From Promethearchaeota archaeon (GTDB lineage Archaea; Asgardarchaeota; Lokiarchaeia; Sigyniarchaeales; SOKP01): 28,327 bases of DNA. The stretch lies in contig JABCSY010000052.1 in NCBI GenBank assembly GCA_018238625.1, positions 1 through 28,327 of the forward strand. Reading direction: 5' to 3'. Below, one piece after another: positions 3,963-28,327 of this stretch. Positions within the stretch are counted from its first letter, which is position 1. Each line of letters opens with the position of its first letter. Below the pieces are notes generated by a model, which made no database searches, had not been told where the DNA came from, and worked only from the letters and a program-made list of their open reading frames with translations. The position numbers and the translations under genes were made by a program.

Positions 3963-6308
3963 ATGAATAAAACTAAAAAATTGATTATTAGTATAGCTTT
4001 AATAGCTATCATCGCTATTTCAGGTGGTTTAGTTTCATGGTTCATCTTTTTTGGAGAACAACCTAAATATCCAGACTTAACAATATCCGATTATTCTCTT
4101 GAAAATGATAATCTTACAGTTAGTATTTCAAACATAGGGGATTCAGATACAAATGCGGTTATTATTATTGTGCAAATCGACTCGTTAGCACTCGTACTTT
4201 ACAATAACTCACTAAATCCTCTGGACCTTGATATTTCTGAAGTTTTTATCTTTTCCCTAAATCTTACTACTTTTGAATCTTATTTCAATTCCGGAACTAG
4301 TTATTCTATTACTATTCAAGTAGATCCTTACGATGACATTAAAGAAAAATTGGAAAACAATAATGAACTAATCGTGGATTATTATTATGAAGAAGAGGTT
4401 CCACTTACTCTATTCTCTCCTAATACTTATTCCTTGAATTGTTCAATAGATTCCTTTGGTTATGCCGTACTATTTAATGCAAGTCAAATTATAATAGAAG
4501 ATTCCTTAATAATTACAAATGGAACTTTTAACGGTTATAACGTGATAAATTCTACAATATTGGAAAATTCCACCATCTCAAATAATGTTACGTGGATATC
4601 TATAGCCCTCTACGGAGATCAAAATTTAACCTTACGAAATATATGGGATGACCGACTTAGCATTGTATTATGTAATAACAGCACTCTCTCCCTTTTTAAT
4701 TGCAGCATTATGGAACTTGCGGTTACCGGTTCTAATAACATATTTCTTTCGAATAGTTCGATTAAAATTTTAAGCTCTGCTGTAAATATGACGAATTTAA
4801 TCTCTCTAAGAATTACCAATCATTCATATATAGAATATTGTATTATCACCAGTCCAATATTCCTTGAAATAGAATATAGCTCGCTCAAAATGCTGTTCAT
4901 AATGGTTTCAAGCAATCCCTACTCTCAACAAGGAGATTATCTCGCATCAGGTACCATCAAAAATTGTTCAATCTATACTTTTACTGCCTATGGTCAAACA
5001 AATTTAAACGTTTATGGTACAGATTTTTACCAAATTAGTATTATGGGTAAAACGCGACTAAACCTAGTTGAATGTATCGTTAATGAAGAATATGTCTATC
5101 AAAGTGCTATTTCTATTTTAAATAATACGAAGATACTCTCAGAGTTACAATATGGAATTATTGTATCGTCTAATTCTATCAATATCACGAATGGGATAAT
5201 TCAGGGTACAAATTACGTGAATAATACCATATTCATTAACGCTAACGTGTCCAGCATGATCTTAAAGCATGTAGTAGTTAATAATACAGGACAGCTTTAT
5301 GTATCCAATTCTTCGTTAGATTTGTACTTGTTTGATTTAGCTAGCGTAATTATAAATGACTCTAGTATAACTAATTCAAATGAATATGGTGGATATCTCG
5401 AAGATTCATCCAGATTGATTGGAATAAACTCAAGCTTTGATTTCCTTTGGTGTCAAGAAAATAGCTCAGTAGATCTGTCTGAAAATTGTATTATTGATTC
5501 TATCCTTATCAATAGCACTAATGATGTATCAATAGATAATTGTATACTAGATCAGATTGGATGGTATTCTGAACCACAAGGAAGTCGGAAAGCAGAGATT
5601 ATTAATTCAACTATAGAAACCTTCCATGCCCCTCCTTCAAGTAAAGTCGATATAATAAATTGTTCAATAGATACTTTATATGAAGGGATTAAGTTTCAAA
5701 CAGGGACAAATTATTTCAATTCCTCAGGAGTTTTTGGAGCGGGAGTAGTTTCAGATTATTTAAACATTAGCGGCTCATTGATCTCTAATAGATCTTACAG
5801 GTACATCGAAATTATGGATGAAGCTAAGGTAATAATCGAAGATATGCATAATCTCTTCAGTATTATTATCAAATCAGGTAATTTAACGGTAAATAATTGT
5901 ACGATAGGATCATTACTGATGTGGAATAATGCAATAGTGTATCTAAAAAACTGTTCAACCCCAGATAGTGGGGGCTTTGGTTTAATAATGGCTATGCTTG
6001 GTCCTCAAGGAATTACCTGCTACGACAATTCGCACCTTTATATCAATAATTCAACTTTCTCTGAGGGTTTAATAACACTTGATAATGCTGCTGAAATAAC
6101 CATAACTAATTCGGTGATATTTGTTATTTACCTTTTCCAAGAATCAAGAGCAATAATTTCTTATTCCGAAGTATGGATGATACGAGTGACAGCTTCCTCT
6201 TTAATTGGTTATGCTTTAAATATATCACACAGTTCAACTGACTACTTATTAACTAGCTCCTGGAATTACCACAGCACTTCTATTGGTTTTCTTTTGTTCG
6301 TAATATAA
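3963..6308 (+). CDS. Membrane-anchored extracellular protein: N-terminal TM/signal anchor, CARDB Ig-like domain, long Asn/Ser/Ile-rich beta-helix-like region
   Basis: Basic N-terminus plus hydrophobic stretch (KKLIISIALIAIIAISGGLVSWFIFF). CARDB-like PDLTI...VSISNIGD...IQVDPYDDIKE..ENNN. Many NCSI/NSSI/NSTI units and N-x-S/T sequons. ATG 3963 preferred over GTG 3954. Confidence 0.75.
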   Translation: MNKTKKLIISIALIAIIAISGGLVSWFIFFGEQPKYPDLTISDYSLENDNLTVSISNIGDSDTNAVIIIVQIDSLALVLYNNSLNPLDLDISEVFIFSLNLTTFESYFNSGTSYSITIQVDPYDDIKEKLENNNELIVDYYYEEEVPLTLFSPNTYSLNCSIDSFGYAVLFNASQIIIEDSLIITNGTFNGYNVINSTILENSTISNNVTWISIALYGDQNLTLRNIWDDRLSIVLCNNSTLSLFNCSIMELAVTGSNNIFLSNSSIKILSSAVNMTNLISLRITNHSYIEYCIITSPIFLEIEYSSLKMLFIMVSSNPYSQQGDYLASGTIKNCSIYTFTAYGQTNLNVYGTDFYQISIMGKTRLNLVECIVNEEYVYQSAISILNNTKILSELQYGIIVSSNSINITNGIIQGTNYVNNTIFINANVSSMILKHVVVNNTGQLYVSNSSLDLYLFDLASVIINDSSITNSNEYGGYLEDSSRLIGINSSFDFLWCQENSSVDLSENCIIDSILINSTNDVSIDNCILDQIGWYSEPQGSRKAEIINSTIETFHAPPSSKVDIINCSIDTLYEGIKFQTGTNYFNSSGVFGAGVVSDYLNISGSLISNRSYRYIEIMDEAKVIIEDMHNLFSIIIKSGNLTVNNCTIGSLLMWNNAIVYLKNCSTPDSGGFGLIMAMLGPQGITCYDNSHLYINNSTFSEGLITLDNAAEITITNSVIFVIYLFQESRAIISYSEVWMIRVTASSLIGYALNISHSSTDYLLTSSWNYHSTSIGFLLFVI

Positions 6309-21817: not shown

Positions 21818-22114
21818 ATGGTAGAGACTAAAGAAAATATCCTCAAAACGCTTAATCGGTTAAAAAATGAAATCGCAACAGATTACAAGGTAAAAAAAAT
21901 TGGACTCTTTGGCTCATATGTCAAACATAAGCAAGATGATTCAAGTGATATAGACATTCTAGTTGATTTTGAAGATGGCGCTGACCTAATTCACTTCATT
22001 GGTCTTTCGCGCTATTTAGAAGAAATCTTTAAAACAAAAGTCGATGTTGTGTCAAAATCTAGTCTGAAAGAGGAACTTAAACAAAATATCCTTCAAGAGG
22101 TTATCTATGAGTGA
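21818..22114 (+). CDS. mntA: Minimal nucleotidyltransferase antitoxin (MNT)
   Basis: LFGSY..SDIDILVDF and KVDVV motifs. Overlaps the downstream HEPN gene. Confidence 0.9.
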   Translation: MVETKENILKTLNRLKNEIATDYKVKKIGLFGSYVKHKQDDSSDIDILVDFEDGADLIHFIGLSRYLEEIFKTKVDVVSKSSLKEELKQNILQEVIYE

Positions 22115-22439
22115 AAAATCATTTGTTTACTTAAGAGATATTAAAAACGCAATAAATAGTATCGAATTATTTATTAAAAACATGACCTTTCCTCAATTCC
22201 AAAGTGACGACAAAACATCCAGTGCGGTAATTCGTAAGTTTGAAATAATTGGAGAAGCAAGCAAAAACATTCCTAAATCCATCAGAGAAAAACATTCTCA
22301 TATTCCCTGGAAAGATATTGCTGGCATGAGAGATAGGTTAATCCACGCTTATTCTGAAGTTGATCTAAAGCTAGTTTGGATGACAATTAAACAAAGATTA
22401 CCTGAATTAAAGAGTGTAATTGAGGAAATACTAAGATAA
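22107..22439 (+). CDS. hepT: HEPN/DUF86 ribonuclease toxin
   Basis: EIIGEASK, IPWKDIAGMRDRLIHAY (Rx4HxY motif). Confidence 0.92.
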   Translation: MSEKSFVYLRDIKNAINSIELFIKNMTFPQFQSDDKTSSAVIRKFEIIGEASKNIPKSIREKHSHIPWKDIAGMRDRLIHAYSEVDLKLVWMTIKQRLPELKSVIEEILR

Positions 22440-22494
22440 GACAATTTTAGGTAGATTAATCATATTTTTTAATTGTGGTTGATTGAAATTATTC

Positions 22495-25284
22495 ATGCCT
22501 AAGCGTAAAATCCAGCAAGTTTTTCAAGAAAAAAATAAACTCAAAAAAAAGTGGGAAAACAGCTGGCTCAATTTCTTGAAAAATGAGACTTATTTAACTT
22601 TTATCGAAAAAGATCAATTTATTACAGAATTGGACCATTTACTCAAGTATCCGCGAATAAATTGGTTTCATTTAAAGGATTTCCTTAAGGTAAGAAAACG
22701 TAAAAAAGAGCTGCGTTACGCAAAACATAAAACAATAGAATATAACAAAGAATTTATTGCTCGGCGTTTAAAAGATCACGATTCCTTCTTCGAAGGTACA
22801 GATGACGGTTTAAAGTATCCTCTTGATATTGATCAAAGAATAGCAATTATTAGAGACGATAAACACAATCTTGTCGTTGCTGGCGCTGGCTCAGGAAAAA
22901 CTAGCGTACTCTCGTCTAGAATTGCTTATTTAATTAGACGAAAAGATAAAATTAACAGCGAGAGAATTCTTGCACTGGCTTTCACAAGGGTGGCGGCGCA
23001 AGAAATGAGAGAAAGGATAAAAAAGAACTACAACATTGACATCGATATTTACACGTTTCACGCATTAGGAAGAAAAATCATACGAGATGAGACGGGTAAG
23101 AAACCCAGATTAATATTTGAACAAAAATTCGACGCTAATCAGTACAAACTAATCAAAAACCTATTTGGAGAAGCGCTAAAAGAAAAAAAATATCAACAAT
23201 TACTTATTGAATATTTGGCTTACTATAGCGAGCAAGAAGTGGACGAAACTTCTTTTGCTGACAAGGAGGAATATTACAAATACATGGAAAACAAAAAGTA
23301 CTCGACCATAAACGATATAGAAGTAAAATCTGTAGCTGAGCGAGACATAGGCAACTTCCTATTCTTACATAATATTAAATTTAAATACGAACCACTTGTA
23401 GAATGGGTGGATAAAAGTGAGGAAGAGAAAGATGAAGATGAATTCGAAAAAGAAAATGATATTGACGAAAAGGAATATCATCCGGATTTCTTTTTACCTG
23501 ATTTCGACATTTACATCGAACATTGGGGCCTTAACGAAAATATGGAAGTCGCACCGTGGTTTTCGCAATCTTCGGAAGAATACTTGGAAGTTAGAAAGTG
23601 GAAATTATCGCAATTTGAGAAGCATGATAAAATACTTGTAGAAACATGGGATTACGAGAGGAGACGCGACGAATTAATTCCTAATTTGAAAAAGAAACTA
23701 CTTGACGTTAATCCCAAAATTGAGTTTATACCATTGTCCTACGAGGAATTGGTCGGAAAAACTCACCAATTTAAAGAAAAAAGAGACCAGTTGGTAAATT
23801 TAATCGCCAACTTCATTAAAATAGCTAAATCCAACTTCTACAACGAAAAAGACATCGAAAAAAAATTAGAAACTATAAAGTACAAGAAAAAACAAAGGCT
23901 ATTTGGCTACATCGCCCTTGAAGTCTTTAAAAGGTATCAAAACTATTTGAAAACCGAAGATAAAATCGATTTTAGCGACATGATAAACCACGCCGTAGAG
24001 TTCGTTAAAAATCGGCCTGAAAAATATCATAACATGTACGACCACATTCTCGTAGACGAATTTCAGGATATCTCGTACCAAAGATTACAATTAATAAAAG
24101 GGATCGTTAACGAGAACTCGCGTACAAAATTGTTCTGCGTGGGCGACGATTGGCAAAGCATATATCAATTTACCGGGAGCGATGTCCGCTTTTTTACGAA
24201 TTTTGAAGAATTTTTCGACAAACCCGAAATTAGCTACCTCAAAACAAATTACCGCAGCTCATTTAACATCGTTGACGTGTCTAATTACCTCATTTCAAAG
24301 AATAAAGATCAGATTAAGAAAATTATTCAAACTAATAACACGCAAGGACAACAACCAATATTTTTCGAATTATCTAAAAGATTTATTTACGGAAAAACTC
24401 AAATACCGCACGTGTACGAATTAATAAAAAAACTATTGGCTGAAGGCGTAAAACCCGACGAGATTATGGTCTTATCGCGCTTCAATAACTTTTTAAAAGA
24501 ATTAGAAATTTATTGCGGGGCAAGAGAAATTCCAACAGAATATAAAGCGGGAGGCGTGAGATTTTATAGCGCTCATGGATCTAAAGGTACTGAATGCAAA
24601 CACGTCATCCTCACCGGCGTCACATCGGGATTGTACGGATTTCCGTGCGAAATTCAAGATTCTTCCGTAATGGAAGTAGCTAAACGATTTAAAACCAAAA
24701 AATACATCGAAGAAGAAAGAAGGCTCTTTTACGTCGCTCTTACTCGAAGCAAAAAGTTTCTTTATATTTACAGCATCGAAGATAACAACTCAATCTTTAT
24801 CGACGAAATAAAAACTCATTTAATGAAATTTCACATCGATTCCTTACCAAGATGGGAAGAACTCGATTCAGAGGTCATATCTAATCTCTTAAACGAAAAG
24901 AAATTTGAAAGACCAATTATATGTCCAGAATGCGGCAAATTCCTGAAAGAACGATCTGGTAAGTATGGAAAGTTTTTAGGTTGTACCGGCTACCCCCAAT
25001 GTAAATATACATTTGACACAAGAGAAAAGTTGAAAGTATCTGAACTTCCTAATACCTGCCCAAAGTGCAAAAGGCGTTTAGTAATTAAGAAAGGAAAATA
25101 CGGCGGTTTTATAGGCTGCACCGGCTATCCTAAATGTAATTTTACTTTTAATCTTAGTAACGATATATCTATTCCTTGCCCAAAATGTGGAAAACATTTA
25201 GTAGCCCGCAGTGGAAAGTATGGCGCTTTTTTAGGGTGCTCAAACTATCCAAGTTGTAAATTTACTTTTAATTTAAGAAAATAG
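22495..25284 (+). CDS. SF1 UvrD/HelD-like DNA helicase with inserted nuclease-like domain and three C-terminal topoisomerase-type C4 zinc fingers
   Basis: AGAGSGKT, LAFT, TFH, DEFQD, VGDDWQSIY, NYRS, HGSKGTE and EERRLFYVALTR motifs. Insert S..E..IGNFL..YEP..PDF..IYIEHWG. Three CPxCG..GKYG.F.GCxxYPxC units. Confidence 0.9.
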   Translation: MPKRKIQQVFQEKNKLKKKWENSWLNFLKNETYLTFIEKDQFITELDHLLKYPRINWFHLKDFLKVRKRKKELRYAKHKTIEYNKEFIARRLKDHDSFFEGTDDGLKYPLDIDQRIAIIRDDKHNLVVAGAGSGKTSVLSSRIAYLIRRKDKINSERILALAFTRVAAQEMRERIKKNYNIDIDIYTFHALGRKIIRDETGKKPRLIFEQKFDANQYKLIKNLFGEALKEKKYQQLLIEYLAYYSEQEVDETSFADKEEYYKYMENKKYSTINDIEVKSVAERDIGNFLFLHNIKFKYEPLVEWVDKSEEEKDEDEFEKENDIDEKEYHPDFFLPDFDIYIEHWGLNENMEVAPWFSQSSEEYLEVRKWKLSQFEKHDKILVETWDYERRRDELIPNLKKKLLDVNPKIEFIPLSYEELVGKTHQFKEKRDQLVNLIANFIKIAKSNFYNEKDIEKKLETIKYKKKQRLFGYIALEVFKRYQNYLKTEDKIDFSDMINHAVEFVKNRPEKYHNMYDHILVDEFQDISYQRLQLIKGIVNENSRTKLFCVGDDWQSIYQFTGSDVRFFTNFEEFFDKPEISYLKTNYRSSFNIVDVSNYLISKNKDQIKKIIQTNNTQGQQPIFFELSKRFIYGKTQIPHVYELIKKLLAEGVKPDEIMVLSRFNNFLKELEIYCGAREIPTEYKAGGVRFYSAHGSKGTECKHVILTGVTSGLYGFPCEIQDSSVMEVAKRFKTKKYIEEERRLFYVALTRSKKFLYIYSIEDNNSIFIDEIKTHLMKFHIDSLPRWEELDSEVISNLLNEKKFERPIICPECGKFLKERSGKYGKFLGCTGYPQCKYTFDTREKLKVSELPNTCPKCKRRLVIKKGKYGGFIGCTGYPKCNFTFNLSNDISIPCPKCGKHLVARSGKYGAFLGCSNYPSCKFTFNLRK

Positions 25285-25367
25285 ATTTTTGTGAAAAAAT
25301 TTTAGAATTCAATTCAATTACTTACAATTAAGATAAATATAAAATATACAATTAACATATATTTAGT

Positions 25368-25595
25368 ATGGACTTTTCTTTCGATAAGGTTGCTAATACT
25401 CTTTACATTCGTTTTTCTCTTGAAGACATTCTTAATTCTGATGAAATAGCAGAGGGAATTATAATCGATTATGGAAAAGAGAATAATATTATGGGTATAG
25501 AAATACTTAATTTTACAAATAGAACGTTAAACCTTAACGATCTTATTCAAATGAATGTAGAAGAATTAATACCAAGACTAACTCAATGTCAATAA
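25368..25595 (+). CDS. DUF2283-family small protein (putative antitoxin)
   Basis: FDKVANTLYIRF..SDEIAEGIIIDY...IMGIEIL. Confidence 0.82.
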   Translation: MDFSFDKVANTLYIRFSLEDILNSDEIAEGIIIDYGKENNIMGIEILNFTNRTLNLNDLIQMNVEELIPRLTQCQ

Positions 25596-25831
25596 AATTC
25601 ACTAAACACGCCTTACAACTGATGAAGGCTCGAAATATCTCTAAAGATGAAATTATTGAAGCTATTAATTATCCTGATAATTTATTAAATGATTCCTACA
25701 AAAATAAAATCGCTCATAAAGTAAAAAAGAATTATTTATTACGAGTTTTTTATTATTTAGAGGGAAATTCGAAAATTGTGATTACTGCTTATAAAACTAC
25801 TAAAATTGATAAATATATTTCAAACCCTTAA
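25586..25831 (+). CDS. DUF4258-family protein (putative RelE-like toxin)
   Basis: FTKHA..M..RNIS..EI..AINYPD..LLRVFY..VITAY. Overlaps the DUF2283 gene. Confidence 0.8.
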   Translation: MSIKFTKHALQLMKARNISKDEIIEAINYPDNLLNDSYKNKIAHKVKKNYLLRVFYYLEGNSKIVITAYKTTKIDKYISNP

Positions 25832-25854
25832 ACCGTGGCATTTAAAACTATGAT

Positions 25855-25893
25855 AATAATATTTGAAAAGATCATGAAATAACCCTCATTCAA
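25855..25893. repeat. att-like junction site A (left arm + TGAAATAACC core + right arm)
   Basis: AATAATATTT-N10-TGAAATAACC-CTCATTCAA. The left part is shared with site C and the right part with site B. Confidence 0.55.
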
Positions 25894-25923
25894 GTTTGAA
25901 ATAAGATTAATAAATAATGGAAA

Positions 25924-26103
25924 ATGGAAAAAATTAATTCTGGCAATTGTATAATTTCATGTGAATCTGAAGCAATTTCTCTACAGATAAGAGAAAAAGA
26001 GTATATTCCATTCGATTCAATGGAAGAACTCTATGCTAAAATCTTAGAACGAAGAGAAATCATTAAAAAAAGAGAGGAAAAAAGAAGATCAAGAAAAAAA
26101 TAG
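25924..26103 (+). pseudogene. C-terminal remnant of a 4Fe-4S dicluster protein gene (59-codon ORF, below the ORF-track cutoff)
   Basis: MEKINSGNCIISCESEAISLQIREKEYIP..MEELYAKI retains half of a CxxCxxCxxxC motif and resembles the C-terminus of 1356..2459 (GVCVHHCPENARILERTE..YLP). Confidence 0.55.
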
Positions 26104-26125
26104 TGAGTTATATATGTAATCTTCC

Positions 26126-26144
26126 TGAAATAACCGTCATTCAA
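26126..26144. repeat. att-like junction site B
   Basis: TGAAATAACCGTCATTCAA, 18/19 identical to 25875-25893. The core abuts the PIN gene stop codon. Confidence 0.55.
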
Positions 26145-26562
26145 TTTCAAAATTAAATCCAACTTTAATAATTAATTCCCCTGTGGTTATTATATCAATT
26201 TCCTCTTGACCTTCTTTTAGTTTTTTATCATTTGACCATATTTTAGAATCTATTGCTAGTGCGCAAGCGAGATAAACCGTATCTTTTGGATCCGGAGAAA
26301 ATCTCTCTGCTCTTTCTATATATGGCGTAATCAAATTTTGAGGAACAATTTCTATCTCTTCCTTCAATATATTTAAATATTGAGCAAAATCTTCCTTAGA
26401 ACGGTTTGTTTTCTCAAGTATATACACCTCATATTTTATAAATTCGTCAAAAAGAAACTCAGGAGCAAATAAATTTAATTTATCACTAAGTAGTAGTTCA
26501 GCAGTTAAACTATTTTTGATCAACGAAGCAAATAAGATATTGGCATCTACAACCAATTTCAA
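26137..26562 (-). CDS. PIN-domain toxin (archaeal PIN_2-like)
   Basis: LVVDANILFASL, PDPKDTVYLACAL and IWSNDKKL motifs. Confidence 0.9.
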   Translation of the reverse strand: MKLVVDANILFASLIKNSLTAELLLSDKLNLFAPEFLFDEFIKYEVYILEKTNRSKEDFAQYLNILKEEIEIVPQNLITPYIERAERFSPDPKDTVYLACALAIDSKIWSNDKKLKEGQEEIDIITTGELIIKVGFNFEIE

Positions 26563-26564
26563 AG

Positions 26565-26789
26565 TTAATCCCTCTTATAACGTTTCACCAATAATTGATT
26601 CACTTCTTGTCCTAATTTCAAAGCCTCATCAATAGTAATATCACTATCCATTCTGAAACCTTTCAGAAAACTTAACTGAGCTATCTTTTTCTTTATAGAA
26701 TCTCTCGCAACTTCCGACCAATTAATTTCTGGAAATTTTTCCATTTCTTTTTTAAGGTCTTCTGGAATCGATAAAGTTATATTCGCCAT
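26565..26789 (-). CDS. RHH/CopG-type antitoxin
   Basis: MANITLSIPEDLKKEMEKFPEINWSEVAR, directly upstream of the PIN gene. Confidence 0.87.
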   Translation of the reverse strand: MANITLSIPEDLKKEMEKFPEINWSEVARDSIKKKIAQLSFLKGFRMDSDITIDEALKLGQEVNQLLVKRYKRD

Positions 26790-26820
26790 CTTATAAACAA
26801 ATATTCATTTTCTTTTTATA

Positions 26821-26847
26821 TTATGTGAAATTATGTGAATACACATA
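26821..26847. promoter_or_regulatory. Putative operator of the RHH-PIN pair
   Basis: TTATGTGAA direct repeat at 26821 and 26831, plus the palindrome TATGTG-AATA-CACATA (26832-26847), 30-60 bp upstream of the antitoxin start. Confidence 0.55.
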
Positions 26848-26872
26848 TTTATATTTTCCTTTCTATAAGAAA

Positions 26873-26917
26873 AATAATATTTAGCAAGTGGTCGTGAAAT
26901 AACCGAATATTATTCCA
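26873..26917. repeat. att-like junction site C
   Basis: AATAATATTT-N12-TGAAATAACCG. Also forms the imperfect inverted repeat TGAAATAA-CCGAATA-TTATTCCA. Confidence 0.55.
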
Positions 26918-26944
26918 AAAAAATTAATTCCTAATGAAAACTGC

Positions 26945-27196
26945 GTGAGTCTATTGGAGATAAATGTACATGGGCACGAACTATGGGGCGCTATTGACGA
27001 AGTATTAAGCGCTTTAGAAGAATGTAAATTAAATGGCGACGGGGAAATCAATATCATCCACGGGTATAAGCACGGGCAAGTTCTAAAGAATTACTTTAGA
27101 TCGAATAAATTTCTAGCGGAAATGGCCCGGGAAGGATTCCAACTAAAATTGAAAGCCATTTCTGATCCTGCCATATCGTCTTTTGTACTACTATAA
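26945..27196 (+). CDS. Stand-alone Smr-domain protein (putative endonuclease)
   Basis: EINVHG..A..EV..L..C..INIIHGYKHGQVLK matches the Smr DLHG/IHG pattern. GTG start. Confidence 0.78.
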   Translation: MSLLEINVHGHELWGAIDEVLSALEECKLNGDGEINIIHGYKHGQVLKNYFRSNKFLAEMAREGFQLKLKAISDPAISSFVLL

Positions 27197-27449
27197 CCCC
27201 ATATTTACACGCTTAAAATCAATAATAGTTTTTGAAGTTCTATGGGTTGACTGAAAACAGTTTTAATGTGATTTTTATTTTTTATTTTTTATTTTTTCAA
27301 TAATTGGTTTTTTAATTCCAACAAGTAATTCTTTAATTCTCTAAGGAAACTAAAAATTCACAAACTTATTATTACTATATTATATTAGCTATCCTAAAAA
27401 TAGCTCATTAATTCCTATAATTTTAATTAAAAATCATTTGGATGAAAAA

Positions 27450-28327
27450 ATGACAAAATATGATTATTTTGTAGCATGTGATTTTAAAATACCAGATAAA
27501 GACGATTTAATTAACGCTATTAAAGCAGCGTTTGAAGGCACGAGCATGATTGGTTATTATGCCGATTTAGAGGTTAGAGCAAATGGAAAACATATATTTA
27601 ATAAAATTGAGGAGATGATTCATTCAACCGAATTCGGCATTTACGAAATTTCAACTAATAATCAAAACGTCAGCTTAGAATTAGGATTAGCCAAAGGAGC
27701 CAAAAAACGGTTTTATATACTCGCAAAAAAAGGCACGAAAATCCCCTCAGATTTGAAAGGAATGGATAGAATAGAATACGACGATTATCGTCAATTAACT
27801 GAAAGAATTAGGCAAAAGATTGCTCTTGTAGAAAAAAATAGGATAACGGAAAAAGAAGACACTTTATCGAATAAATACGACAACATACCAGAGAAAATCA
27901 TAATAGAAAAAGCTTACACATTGTATCAAGCTGAGGCCCTTATGCATAACTTCGGTTCAGAAATCGAAGATAAAGACGCTTCAAATAAAAAAGCTTGGTG
28001 CGCTAACCTTTCAGATAAAAACAATCACTTCATCTATGGGCCCTATAACTCGTTAGATGAATTAGGCAAATTCATAACGTATTTTAAAATCAAAATAAGC
28101 GAAAACTCTTTTCCAGGACAATTGTTATTTCTCGACGTAGTAGGGGCAGGAAAAGGAGGGAGGGTTTTGCAGAGTAAAGATTTCAAAGAGCCAAATAAAT
28201 ACGAGCTTTTTGGTATCAAATTTGGCTGCGAATCGTTAGGACCAATGGAATATAGAGTTAAGAATCTAATGCGGGAAGACATAGATGTTTGTATTGACTA
28301 TGTAGCAATAGTTAAATTTGAGAAATT
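27450..28327 (+). CDS. Partial (runs off the window): TIR/nucleoside-2-deoxyribosyltransferase-like N-terminal domain fused to a galactose-binding-like/CBM-type beta-sandwich
   Basis: Manual translation shows 292 open codons from ATG 27450: MTKYDYFVACDF..IYEISTNNQNVSLELGLAKG..IPSDLKGMDRIEY..YQAEAL..DASNKKAW..FIYGPY..FLDV..DF..F..MEYRV..IDYVAIV. Absent from the ORF track because there is no stop in the window. Confidence 0.8.
   Translation, partial: MTKYDYFVACDFKIPDKDDLINAIKAAFEGTSMIGYYADLEVRANGKHIFNKIEEMIHSTEFGIYEISTNNQNVSLELGLAKGAKKRFYILAKKGTKIPSDLKGMDRIEYDDYRQLTERIRQKIALVEKNRITEKEDTLSNKYDNIPEKIIIEKAYTLYQAEALMHNFGSEIEDKDASNKKAWCANLSDKNNHFIYGPYNSLDELGKFITYFKIKISENSFPGQLLFLDVVGAGKGGRVLQSKDFKEPNKYELFGIKFGCESLGPMEYRVKNLMREDIDVCIDYVAIVKFEK

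Follow-up and report, generated by a model that had tools for sequence, protein, structure and literature searches.

Probable relics of dif-like cassette accretion beside toxin-antitoxin-type gene pairs in a Lokiarchaeal genome

The 28.3-kb window analysed here is the whole of contig C154 from the genome of a Promethearchaeota archaeon (G000; 4.29 Mb, 32% G+C, 201 contigs). Four short sites in its right-hand part, designated Z, A, B and C, are probably half-sites of a dif-like system, three of them worn and one an intact copy. They are best explained, on balance, as relics of site-specific cassette accretion at dif-like sequences by an enzyme acting in trans, within one family of Loki-type Asgard archaea (f1) in which the site system is found mainly in genera g1 and g28. 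The window alone is modest, with one intact and three worn sites beside two toxin-antitoxin-type gene pairs. The genomes and contigs of relatives are given by G- and C-numbers. A class-wide search covered 161 genomes, 134 of them from f1, and a genus-level motif search covered 42 genomes with the reversed motif as control.

Family f1 carries a 14-mer, TCGTGAAA-TAACCG, that makes up one arm and the 6-bp centre of a dif-like palindrome. The full site, TCGTGAAA-TAACCG-TTTCACGA, is a 22-bp palindrome; its two 8-bp arms are perfect inverted copies of each other, and the 6-bp centre between them is asymmetric. It is present in 13 of the 161 class genomes, never twice in one genome, and the control gave no matches. 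Each contig holding a full site (8 out of 8) has one perfect palindrome, located exactly where the half-sites change side. To the left of this master site every half-site keeps TCGTGAAA on its left, and to the right of it every half-site keeps TTTCACGA on its right. Likewise, contigs with both motif orientations in the 161-genome search always have plus followed by minus. The good arm is thus on the far side in all 58 half-sites of the 8 contigs with a master site and, among all fetched contigs, in 26 of the 26 that have at least two sites (141 sites). Reverse complementing a contig leaves this rule unchanged, so it is a real test. The centre is found in either orientation, the reverse-centre form CGTGAAACGGTTA, in which CGTGAAA is followed by the reverse centre CGGTTA, occurring 36 times in loci chosen only for TAACCG. 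This mixed orientation fits a crossover region, not a word that is read by a protein.

The sites might instead be polar sequences of the replication terminus, either a Ter-like fork trap or guide words leading to dif, in a region that varies simply because termini do. Two opposed, oriented groups of sites around one point are seen inside approximately 50 kb of the 300-kb contig G151:C4. Genes also converge on the switch in G105:C57 and G128:C28. This explanation is nonetheless very improbable. An arm that is joined to the centre in either orientation leaves no single polar word, and a given cassette is found, sites included, in more than one neighbourhood. GC/AT skew and coding bias make no turn at the switch in G151:C4 (300 kb) or G119:C84 (136 kb), a result that is in itself uninformative.

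The sequences between the sites behave as cassettes. In the genus-level search, CGTGAAATAACC had 77 matches against 19 for the reversed control. These matches form same-strand rows with sites 0.75-5 kb apart, for example five on G014:C279 and four each on G034:C102 and G010:C112, and the contigs of several relatives end at a site. Every genus site is either between genes or overlaps only the final few bases of an open reading frame (ORF), and in a logo of 54 distinct sites conservation is restricted to about 15-16 nt. Twelve cassette families recur in different neighbourhoods, and g1 and g28 are the genera in which the class-wide search showed enrichment of the motif. Cassettes are often multi-gene, with genes in both directions. 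Their cargo includes toxin-antitoxin genes (HepT/MNT, DUF433/DUF5615 and PIN) and defence genes (restriction-modification, McrBC, TIR, NB-ARC, AbiV, short Argonaute, SIR2-TPR, GmrSD and AAA_15), as well as accessory genes, with Ras-family GTPase, Roadblock and WD40 genes among the cassette content of the relatives, in keeping with Loki-type Asgard archaea.

For 38 sites the upstream neighbour has its stop toward the site in 19 cases and its start in 17, and the downstream neighbour has its start toward the site in 22 and its stop in 14. Site direction is therefore unrelated to gene direction, and a promoter or terminator role for the sites was rejected. Alignments end within 30 nt of a site in 34 out of 243 cases, compared with 2.0% for random places, although the loci were chosen for having sites and this comparison is therefore not independent. 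The first-pass annotation of the window had proposed recombination-type, dif-like sites at cassette borders, and this is borne out by the relatives and not by G000 itself. The same applies to its expected enrichment at gene-content breakpoints, which holds in the relatives by these alignment ends and fails at the two local indels in the window, both of which miss the cores.

Two further kinds of sequence were noted around the arrays. A conserved mini-module of approximately 139 nt, lacking an ORF and with no simple hairpin, occurs in at least 10 copies between reverse-centre and forward-centre half-sites (for example G128:C28:65-223, G105:C57:15734-15885 and G108:C41:62462-62620). Possible identities are a small RNA gene, an attachment region that folds and a cassette that is empty. 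Next to the full site in G105 (C57:16174-21145) and G151 (C4:32867-38703) is a multigene module that includes a ParA-like ATPase. In G105 and in G034 (C102:141-5191) the module also contains a protein of approximately 379 aa and a HerA-type ATPase, and constitutes one shared 5-kb cassette.

The TAACCG site is part of a wider palindrome family. There are 13 perfect CGTGAAA-N6-TTTCACG palindromes in G000, with a spacer of exactly 6 in 13 out of 13 and with 12 different centres. All of them are between genes, beside unrelated accessory-type genes (loci L119-L131, on contigs C12, C14, C19, C88, C95, C100, C123, C125, C131, C138, C148, C156 and C181). Those at C100:37159 and C181:1499 have the centre CGCCAA and one flank in common. 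Palindromes with the same arms are present at 3-14 per genome in 41 of 41 g1 and 54 of 54 g28 genomes, with controls near zero. A given centre may be found in several species, and even in different families, but the flanks are mostly unrelated beyond approximately 25-37 nt. These sister palindromes are therefore also located at gene-content breakpoints. One of them provides an empty and an occupied allele. G016:C26 has a single full site with the centre CAAGTC. In G000:C148 that left flank is followed by arm A and 1 further nt, an 860-bp MazE-PIN cassette and then the full site. The commonest centre class, CTCAGC, was considered as the true dif and rejected; it was found in 6 of 6 g1 genomes checked and is not universal, since only 52 of the 161 class genomes have it, some of them in two copies. 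Arrays of half-sites with other centres were also sought in G000 and dismissed, only 3 stray half-sites matching the centre of a palindrome.

The arms could instead form the operator of a dimeric regulatory or architectural protein, the palindromes being portable promoter-operator units that travel with genes. Such an operator would suit the perfect palindromes of G000, with their constant spacer and dozen centres, and their presence in every g1 and g28 genome. It would also suit the 4 or 5 of the 13 that are positioned between divergent gene starts in G000, and the conserved A/T-rich left extension of approximately 25-37 nt in the CTCAGC class. This is unlikely, however, as several palindromes are between convergent genes or after stop codons, the flanking genes have no common theme, and the direction of sites does not follow that of genes. 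Half-sites that keep one arm and the centre, in both orientations, are not what an operator would produce. The far-side arms of 26 out of 26 contigs and the duplication of an arm at insertion are, in addition, signatures of recombination.

Recombination at dif-like sites remains the favoured origin of the sites in the window, which are:

25289-25302, + strand: site Z, TTGTGAAAAAATTT, a decayed half-site in which 7 of the 8 bases of the arm survive but the centre does not; marks where insertion 1 starts on the left.
25872-25885, + strand: site A, TCATGAAATAACCC, a half-site that departs from the family 14-mer by 2 changes.
26123-26136, + strand: site B, TCCTGAAATAACCG, a half-site with 1 change from the family 14-mer.
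26892-26905, + strand: site C, TCGTGAAATAACCG, a half-site with both arm and centre intact.

Site C is the sole exact copy of the 14-mer in G000. Site Z aligns with TCGTGAAATAACCG upstream of DUF2283 genes in G030:C231, G034:C137 and G031:C126. The conserved arm is on the left in A, B and C alike, as it would be in the left arm of an array. Differences from the 14-mer number about 5 in Z, 2 in A, 1 in B and 0 in C, a decay order that weakly (n=4) matches the one expected with a master site to the right, where the contig ends 1.4 kb beyond C.

A core shared by three of these sites, TGAAATAACC, occurs on the + strand of the window at 6092, 25875 (A), 26126 (B) and 26895 (C). These 4 matches compare with 0.17 expected, and 4 were reached by none of 100 shuffles. 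The clustering of three intergenic cores noted in the first-pass annotation is thus confirmed, the cores of A, B and C being between ORFs and within about 1 kb, as is its fourth copy at 6092, which is inside a reading frame and is unlike the family 14-mer at 3 of 14 positions. Over both strands of the 4.29 Mb of G000 there are 14 copies of TGAAATAACC, equal to the median (14) of 500 10-mers of shuffled composition, and none of the 10 other copies shares flanks with A, B or C. The core is clustered locally and is not enriched genome-wide in G000, so that, on G000 alone, the idea would have failed the genome-wide scan suggested with the annotation.

Sites B and C both carry TGAAATAACCG and bracket a PIN_2 gene and a 74-aa ORF. 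Their bracketing of what had been called an RHH-PIN pair therefore stands, with a PIN_2 match at E 1.5e-27. The RHH label is unconfirmed because the 74-aa ORF has no Pfam match at E <= 0.01. The common right arm of A and B is also upheld; TGAAATAACCxTCATTCAA is shared at 18 of 19 positions, and at 76% identity the repeat can be followed over 49 nt (25859-25907 and 26110-26158; repeat family D1). A left arm common to A and C is not found, since their left flanks share only a low-complexity A/T decamer, AATAATATTT, 10 nt from the core at A and 12 nt at C, which is treated as chance. The proposal that circularising the B-C cassette would give a junction equal to A loses its support with this decamer. 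Site C had also been described as a palindrome around a 7-bp spacer. Read as 11-7-11, TCGTGAAATAA/CCGAATA/TTATTCCAAAA, it pairs at 8 of 11 positions; the actual site layout is 8-6-8, with one left arm common to A, B and C. The A/B variant TGAAATANNNNTCATTCAA was considered as a site family of its own and discarded. Allowing up to 1 mismatch it is no commoner than the reversed control, and exact copies are found only at A, B, G007:C21:266308 and G009:C101:51705.

The chance-level frequency of the core in G000 and the likeness of A and B over 49 nt at 76% would both be accounted for by local tandem duplication followed by decay, or by chance. Either is highly improbable in view of the relatives. 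In 28 of 42 genus genomes one and the same 12-mer borders cassettes, both homologous and unrelated ones (77 matches to 19 in the controls), the motif is present in a second genus, and the far-side rule likewise contradicts such an origin.

The four sites occupy a variable spot with the following features:

22483-25284, + strand: UvrD-type helicase gene with three Top1-type zinc ribbons (Pfam UvrD-helicase E 3e-52, Zn_ribbon_Top1 E 8.9e-40).
~25285-25902: insertion 1, starting at Z and ending 18 nt past A, with the DUF2283-DUF4258 pair as cargo.
25368-25595 and 25586-25831, + strand: DUF2283 gene and DUF4258 gene (Pfam E 5.5e-15 and 1.4e-8).
25903-25940, + strand: what remains of the ancestral spacer between helicase and Smr genes, ending in the 13 nt AAAAAATTAATTC (25928-25940).
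25941-26930, 990 bp: insertion 2, made up in order of a gene remnant, site B, the PIN pair, site C and a final 13 nt, flanked by a 13-nt direct repeat.
25941-26103, + strand: remnant of the 3' part of a gene whose 376-aa product is rich in cysteine and has CxxCxxC motifs of iron-sulfur type; forms the left end of insertion 2.
26137-26562, - strand: PIN_2 toxin gene (Pfam E 1.5e-27), forming cassette family K12 with the 74-aa ORF.
26565-26789, - strand: 74-aa ORF upstream of the PIN_2 gene, no Pfam match at E <= 0.01.
26918-26930, + strand: second copy of AAAAAATTAATTC, at the right end of insertion 2 (direct-repeat family D12).
26945-27196, + strand: Smr-like small gene (Pfam Smr E 3e-5; 24.5 bits, under the 25.7 cut-off).
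27438 onward: TIR-like gene, open-ended.

The helicase gene is the left anchor of the spot and the Smr-like gene, the DNA of which is 85-93% identical in at least 9 genus relatives, is the right anchor. In G008:C383 the helicase stop is followed by approximately 10 nt, the equivalent of window 25903-25940 and then directly the Smr gene. The same spacer-Smr junction is present in G028, G007 and G022, and in G016:C79, G035 and G027. G000 therefore carries two insertions. The DUF2283-DUF4258 pair is absent in G008 and G028. The remnant at the left of insertion 2 aligns with the last ~45-50 codons of full-length genes in G028:C39 and G020:C161, and a similar 372-aa cassette gene in G014:C279 has Fer4 matches. 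A 59-aa ORF at 25924-26103 is this remnant plus 17 nt of the spacer that supply a start codon, and it has no Pfam match.

Empty alleles are also found among metagenome contigs from public sediment and cold-seep runs, aligned at 90% likeness, with the parts of the stretch left uncovered in run X16 taken out of use. The joint 25283->25903 is present in 2 contigs each in X10 and X16. For insertion 2 there are the joints 25927->26918 (1 contig, X16), 25930->26921 (1 contig, X10) and 25940->26926 (X16). The sides of these joints are short, at 22-35 nt, and the contigs probably come from related organisms; they establish that empty alleles exist in nature and are no demonstration of excision in the strain of the window. 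Two other joints, 25867->26519 and 24938->26211, with sides of 21-30 nt, were set aside as unreliable, and no interpretation was reached for a backward joint, 26154->25906, in X10 (depth 4.5). The two local indels end 13-18 nt past the cores or elsewhere.

The PIN pair itself is a cassette in other genomes. It is site-bounded in G014:C16 and G031:C126, where TCGTGAAATAACC, the same 13-mer as at C, comes immediately after it and unrelated DNA after that. The copy in G113:C175 is a terminal segment, so that only one bounding site is visible. The block is 83-90% identical in G026, G034, G031 and G014, only from 26154-26161 to 26860-26882. The last ~7 codons of the PIN gene, which with its stop are provided by the right flank of B, are therefore outside the shared block, as is B. 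The 74-aa ORF stops 2 nt ahead of the PIN start. Upstream of the pair, 31 nt from the start of the 74-aa ORF, the exact 10-nt sequence ATTATGTGAA is repeated twice in tandem (26820-26839). The repeat is kept in the cassettes of relatives and is likely to be an operator of the PIN-pair promoter.

Z-DUF2283-DUF4258-A and remnant gene-B-PIN pair-C are probably two array fragments, in which the sites are passengers between the helicase and Smr-like genes. The ends of the fragments suggest that they reached the spacer by secondary events, one of them with the 13-bp direct repeat. In G016:C79 the Smr gene and a helicase remnant are approximately 10 kb from a row of half-sites, and the locus therefore seems to border an island. 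The helicase of that contig (G016:C79:16741-17124) is cut to a 127-aa remnant, the first ~375 nt of which (window 22439-22857) adjoin the Smr spacer. A different 1.13-kb cassette with antitoxin and PIN-like genes, lacking the site motif, occupies the same spot in G028 (C20:3076-4634). It is flanked by a direct repeat of approximately 120 bp, which takes in 28 nt from the tail of the helicase, the spacer and the initial 63 nt of the Smr region.

Direct repeats of this kind raise the possibility that no dedicated recombinase is involved, and that the conserved 14-22 nt serve as short homologies for general or microhomology-mediated recombination. The 13-nt repeat around insertion 2 is unrelated to the site, the G028:C20 cassette has its own repeat flanks at the same spot, and no recombinase is found near the arrays. 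Homology of this length is an improbable cause of the system as a whole, leaving unexplained the single palindrome at the switch, the strict 6-bp spacing and the arm that is always on the far side.

Cassette accretion by an enzyme in trans would account for these features. No match to PF00589 or PF00239 was obtained among 255 ORFs in the site-bearing loci (85 + 91 + 79), in agreement with the earlier view that the recombinase is not encoded nearby. The tyrosine recombinases of 6 genomes are on contigs other than those with the arrays. Each genome examined has one conserved XerA-like tyrosine recombinase, away from the arrays, and in G014 (8 sites) and G034 (9 sites) it is the only tyrosine recombinase. 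No serine recombinase was found in 5 of 5 genomes, and a Y1 transposase is present only in G000. The best matches of the G000 enzyme are the XerA structures 4a8e and 5hxy. By elimination, the XerA-like enzyme is the only classical candidate, and is put forward tentatively. Its gene in G000 (C48:49755-51737; L132) has a neighbour of ~397 aa, and five relatives (L136-L140) have a gene of the same size beside xerA and two 314-aa genes on the other side. The neighbour is of Cdc6/Orc1 type by Pfam in G000 only, which suggests a position near a replication origin.

In such a system, circular cassettes with one good arm and the centre would integrate at the master site. On the outer side each integration would leave a hybrid half-site, in which the arm from the chromosome and the centre are joined to an arm supplied by the cassette, and would rebuild the master site beside the newest cassette. 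Repetition would stack cassettes on both sides. If the full site recombined with an inverted half-site, the resulting inversion would relocate and flip the full site with the far-side rule kept, and occasional inversions would explain the mixed orientation of the centres. The arrangement of the sites, the shuffling of cassettes, the empty alleles and the lack of recombinases nearby are observed directly. It is from the static arrangement of sites that we infer the circular intermediates, the order of events and the enzyme. The first-pass proposal of cassette accretion by a recombinase in trans thus stands as far as the sites and borders are concerned, and not in its circularised B-C junction or its swapped arms. 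More broadly, and with a little less than even confidence, this Lokiarchaeial family may possess a genome-wide means of gene capture with no dedicated integrase. Each genome would hold about ten palindromic pads with 8-bp arms, a strict 6-bp spacer and private centres, of which the TAACCG pad would grow a two-armed array of defence, toxin-antitoxin and accessory cassettes by serial integration, using the housekeeping XerA or another enzyme in trans.

Several observations weigh against cassette accretion at dif-like sites. No full TAACCG site is present in the G000 assembly at up to 4 mismatches, and the only half-sites that the TAACCG search returned there are C and B; the case therefore rests on the relatives. 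Within f1 the full site was seen in only 13 of 134 genomes and so is not shown to be a housekeeping dif. The empty alleles of both insertions have no recognisable site, and the insertion ends miss the cores, that of insertion 1 by 18 nt past A, while insertion 2 starts in the gene remnant and ends 13 nt past C. Between G016:C26 and G000:C148, junction identity stops 1 nt into the centre, and the crossover point is therefore not fixed by this pair of alleles. No circular junction or other sign of activity was seen. In 5 of 5 genomes there is no same-arm palindrome within 3 kb of xerA, and the site arms are unlike the Pyrococcus abyssi dif given in PMC2958812. The abundance of palindromes tracks XerA similarity only loosely, with 6 per genome in g5 at 57% identity and at most 1 in g18 at 65-67%. 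XerA is therefore only a candidate.

Upstream of the helicase gene, at 21818-22439, is an MNT-HepT toxin-antitoxin pair, the DNA of which is 74% identical to site-bounded cassettes of g28. Flanking sites were sought and none was found here. The pair was therefore rejected as a site-bounded cassette, being related at the coding level only. A search of 24500-28327 against Rfam found nothing at the sites. The single sub-threshold match in this region, to RF03531 at 24682-24781 inside the helicase gene (36.9 bits, gathering score 65.2), is probably chance.

Integrative mobile elements exploiting Xer (IMEX) insert at bacterial dif sites using the host Xer recombinases, and include CTX-phi, TLC-phi, VGJ-phi and the gonococcal island. 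The present system is similar in that its cassettes carry no integrase and would insert at a chromosomal palindrome with 6 bp at its centre, rebuilding the full site and leaving a hybrid with one poor arm. Serial insertion would likewise give arrays, and the enzyme would act in trans. Inverted arms around a centre of 6-8 bp, the target of such elements, are present in TCGTGAAA-TAACCG-TTTCACGA, and the spacer is 6 in 13 of 13 G000 palindromes. The rebuilt site is seen as a static pattern in 26 of 26 contigs and in the empty and occupied alleles of the sister site. It differs in its archaeal host, in a cargo of small gene cassettes rather than phage genomes, in arrays that grow on both sides with centres in both orientations, in having approximately ten sister palindromes with other centres per genome, and in an enzyme that is only a candidate. 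The pdif modules of Acinetobacter plasmids are gene modules, often toxin-antitoxin, surrounded by Xer-type sites in which the centres vary and the orientation alternates. Discrete modules, often of toxin-antitoxin genes, between Xer-type sites of varying centre and alternating orientation are common to both, whereas the sites described here are chromosomal and archaeal, with one master site, one-armed half-sites and a strict far-side rule.

The attC sites of integrons are structured imperfect palindromes of approximately 60-150 nt with inverse core sites. A canonical integron, with IntI and attC, a cluster of attC sites lacking integrases (CALIN), or the terminal repeats of a transposon or miniature inverted-repeat transposable element (MITE) could each be imagined behind the arrays. 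Rows of cassettes in one direction with toxin-antitoxin and defence cargo, mostly without an integrase nearby, are what is described for archaeal integrons and CALINs by Ghaly et al. 2022 (PMC9668308), and the arrays resemble these as a gene-capture platform. Such an identity is as improbable as tandem duplication or chance. No IntI was found in the scanned loci or genomes, neither among the 255 ORFs beside the arrays nor in the 6 genomes with tyrosine recombinases elsewhere. The first-pass statement that the sites are not canonical attC is correct, as about 15 nt are conserved with no attC-sized structured repeat, the 54-site logo has no partner core and Rfam has nothing at the sites. In place of an attC hairpin there is a dif-like word of 14-22 nt conserved in sequence, and the cassettes often have several genes, in either direction, in arrays with two arms. 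Sites in one direction between mobile cassettes are present within each array arm, though with mixed centres. Transposon ends would alternate left and right, which was never seen in 26 contigs.

The archaeal XerA/dif system, as set out by Cortez et al. 2010 (PMC2958812), is alike in its inverted arms, 6-bp spacer and no more than one site per genome, intergenic and not beside xerA, with one XerA-like gene per genome. It is unlike in its arms, those of P. abyssi dif being different, and in that the full site is present in only 13 of 161 genomes here. A literature search, with supplements outside its scope, found no paper on such arrays in Asgard archaea, and the term IMEX is absent from the text of a 2021 review of archaeal tyrosine recombinases (PMC8371274). 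In summary of these comparisons, the system works like dif-hijacking elements and pdif modules and fills the role of an integron, while lacking the features by which integrons are recognised.

If this interpretation is true, the defence islands of Asgard archaea are put together and rearranged by means of a host enzyme and a DNA grammar that is simple and recognisable, which would also explain the poor metagenome assembly of these regions. The 14-mer would then be a sequence handle for mobile cassettes and new defence genes in Lokiarchaeia. The hijacking of dif would reach archaeal chromosomes, beyond bacterial phages and plasmids, and the arrays would be an archaeal counterpart of integrons built on the logic of dif. 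They would also offer a testable path for the entry of foreign genes into the lineage nearest to eukaryotes.

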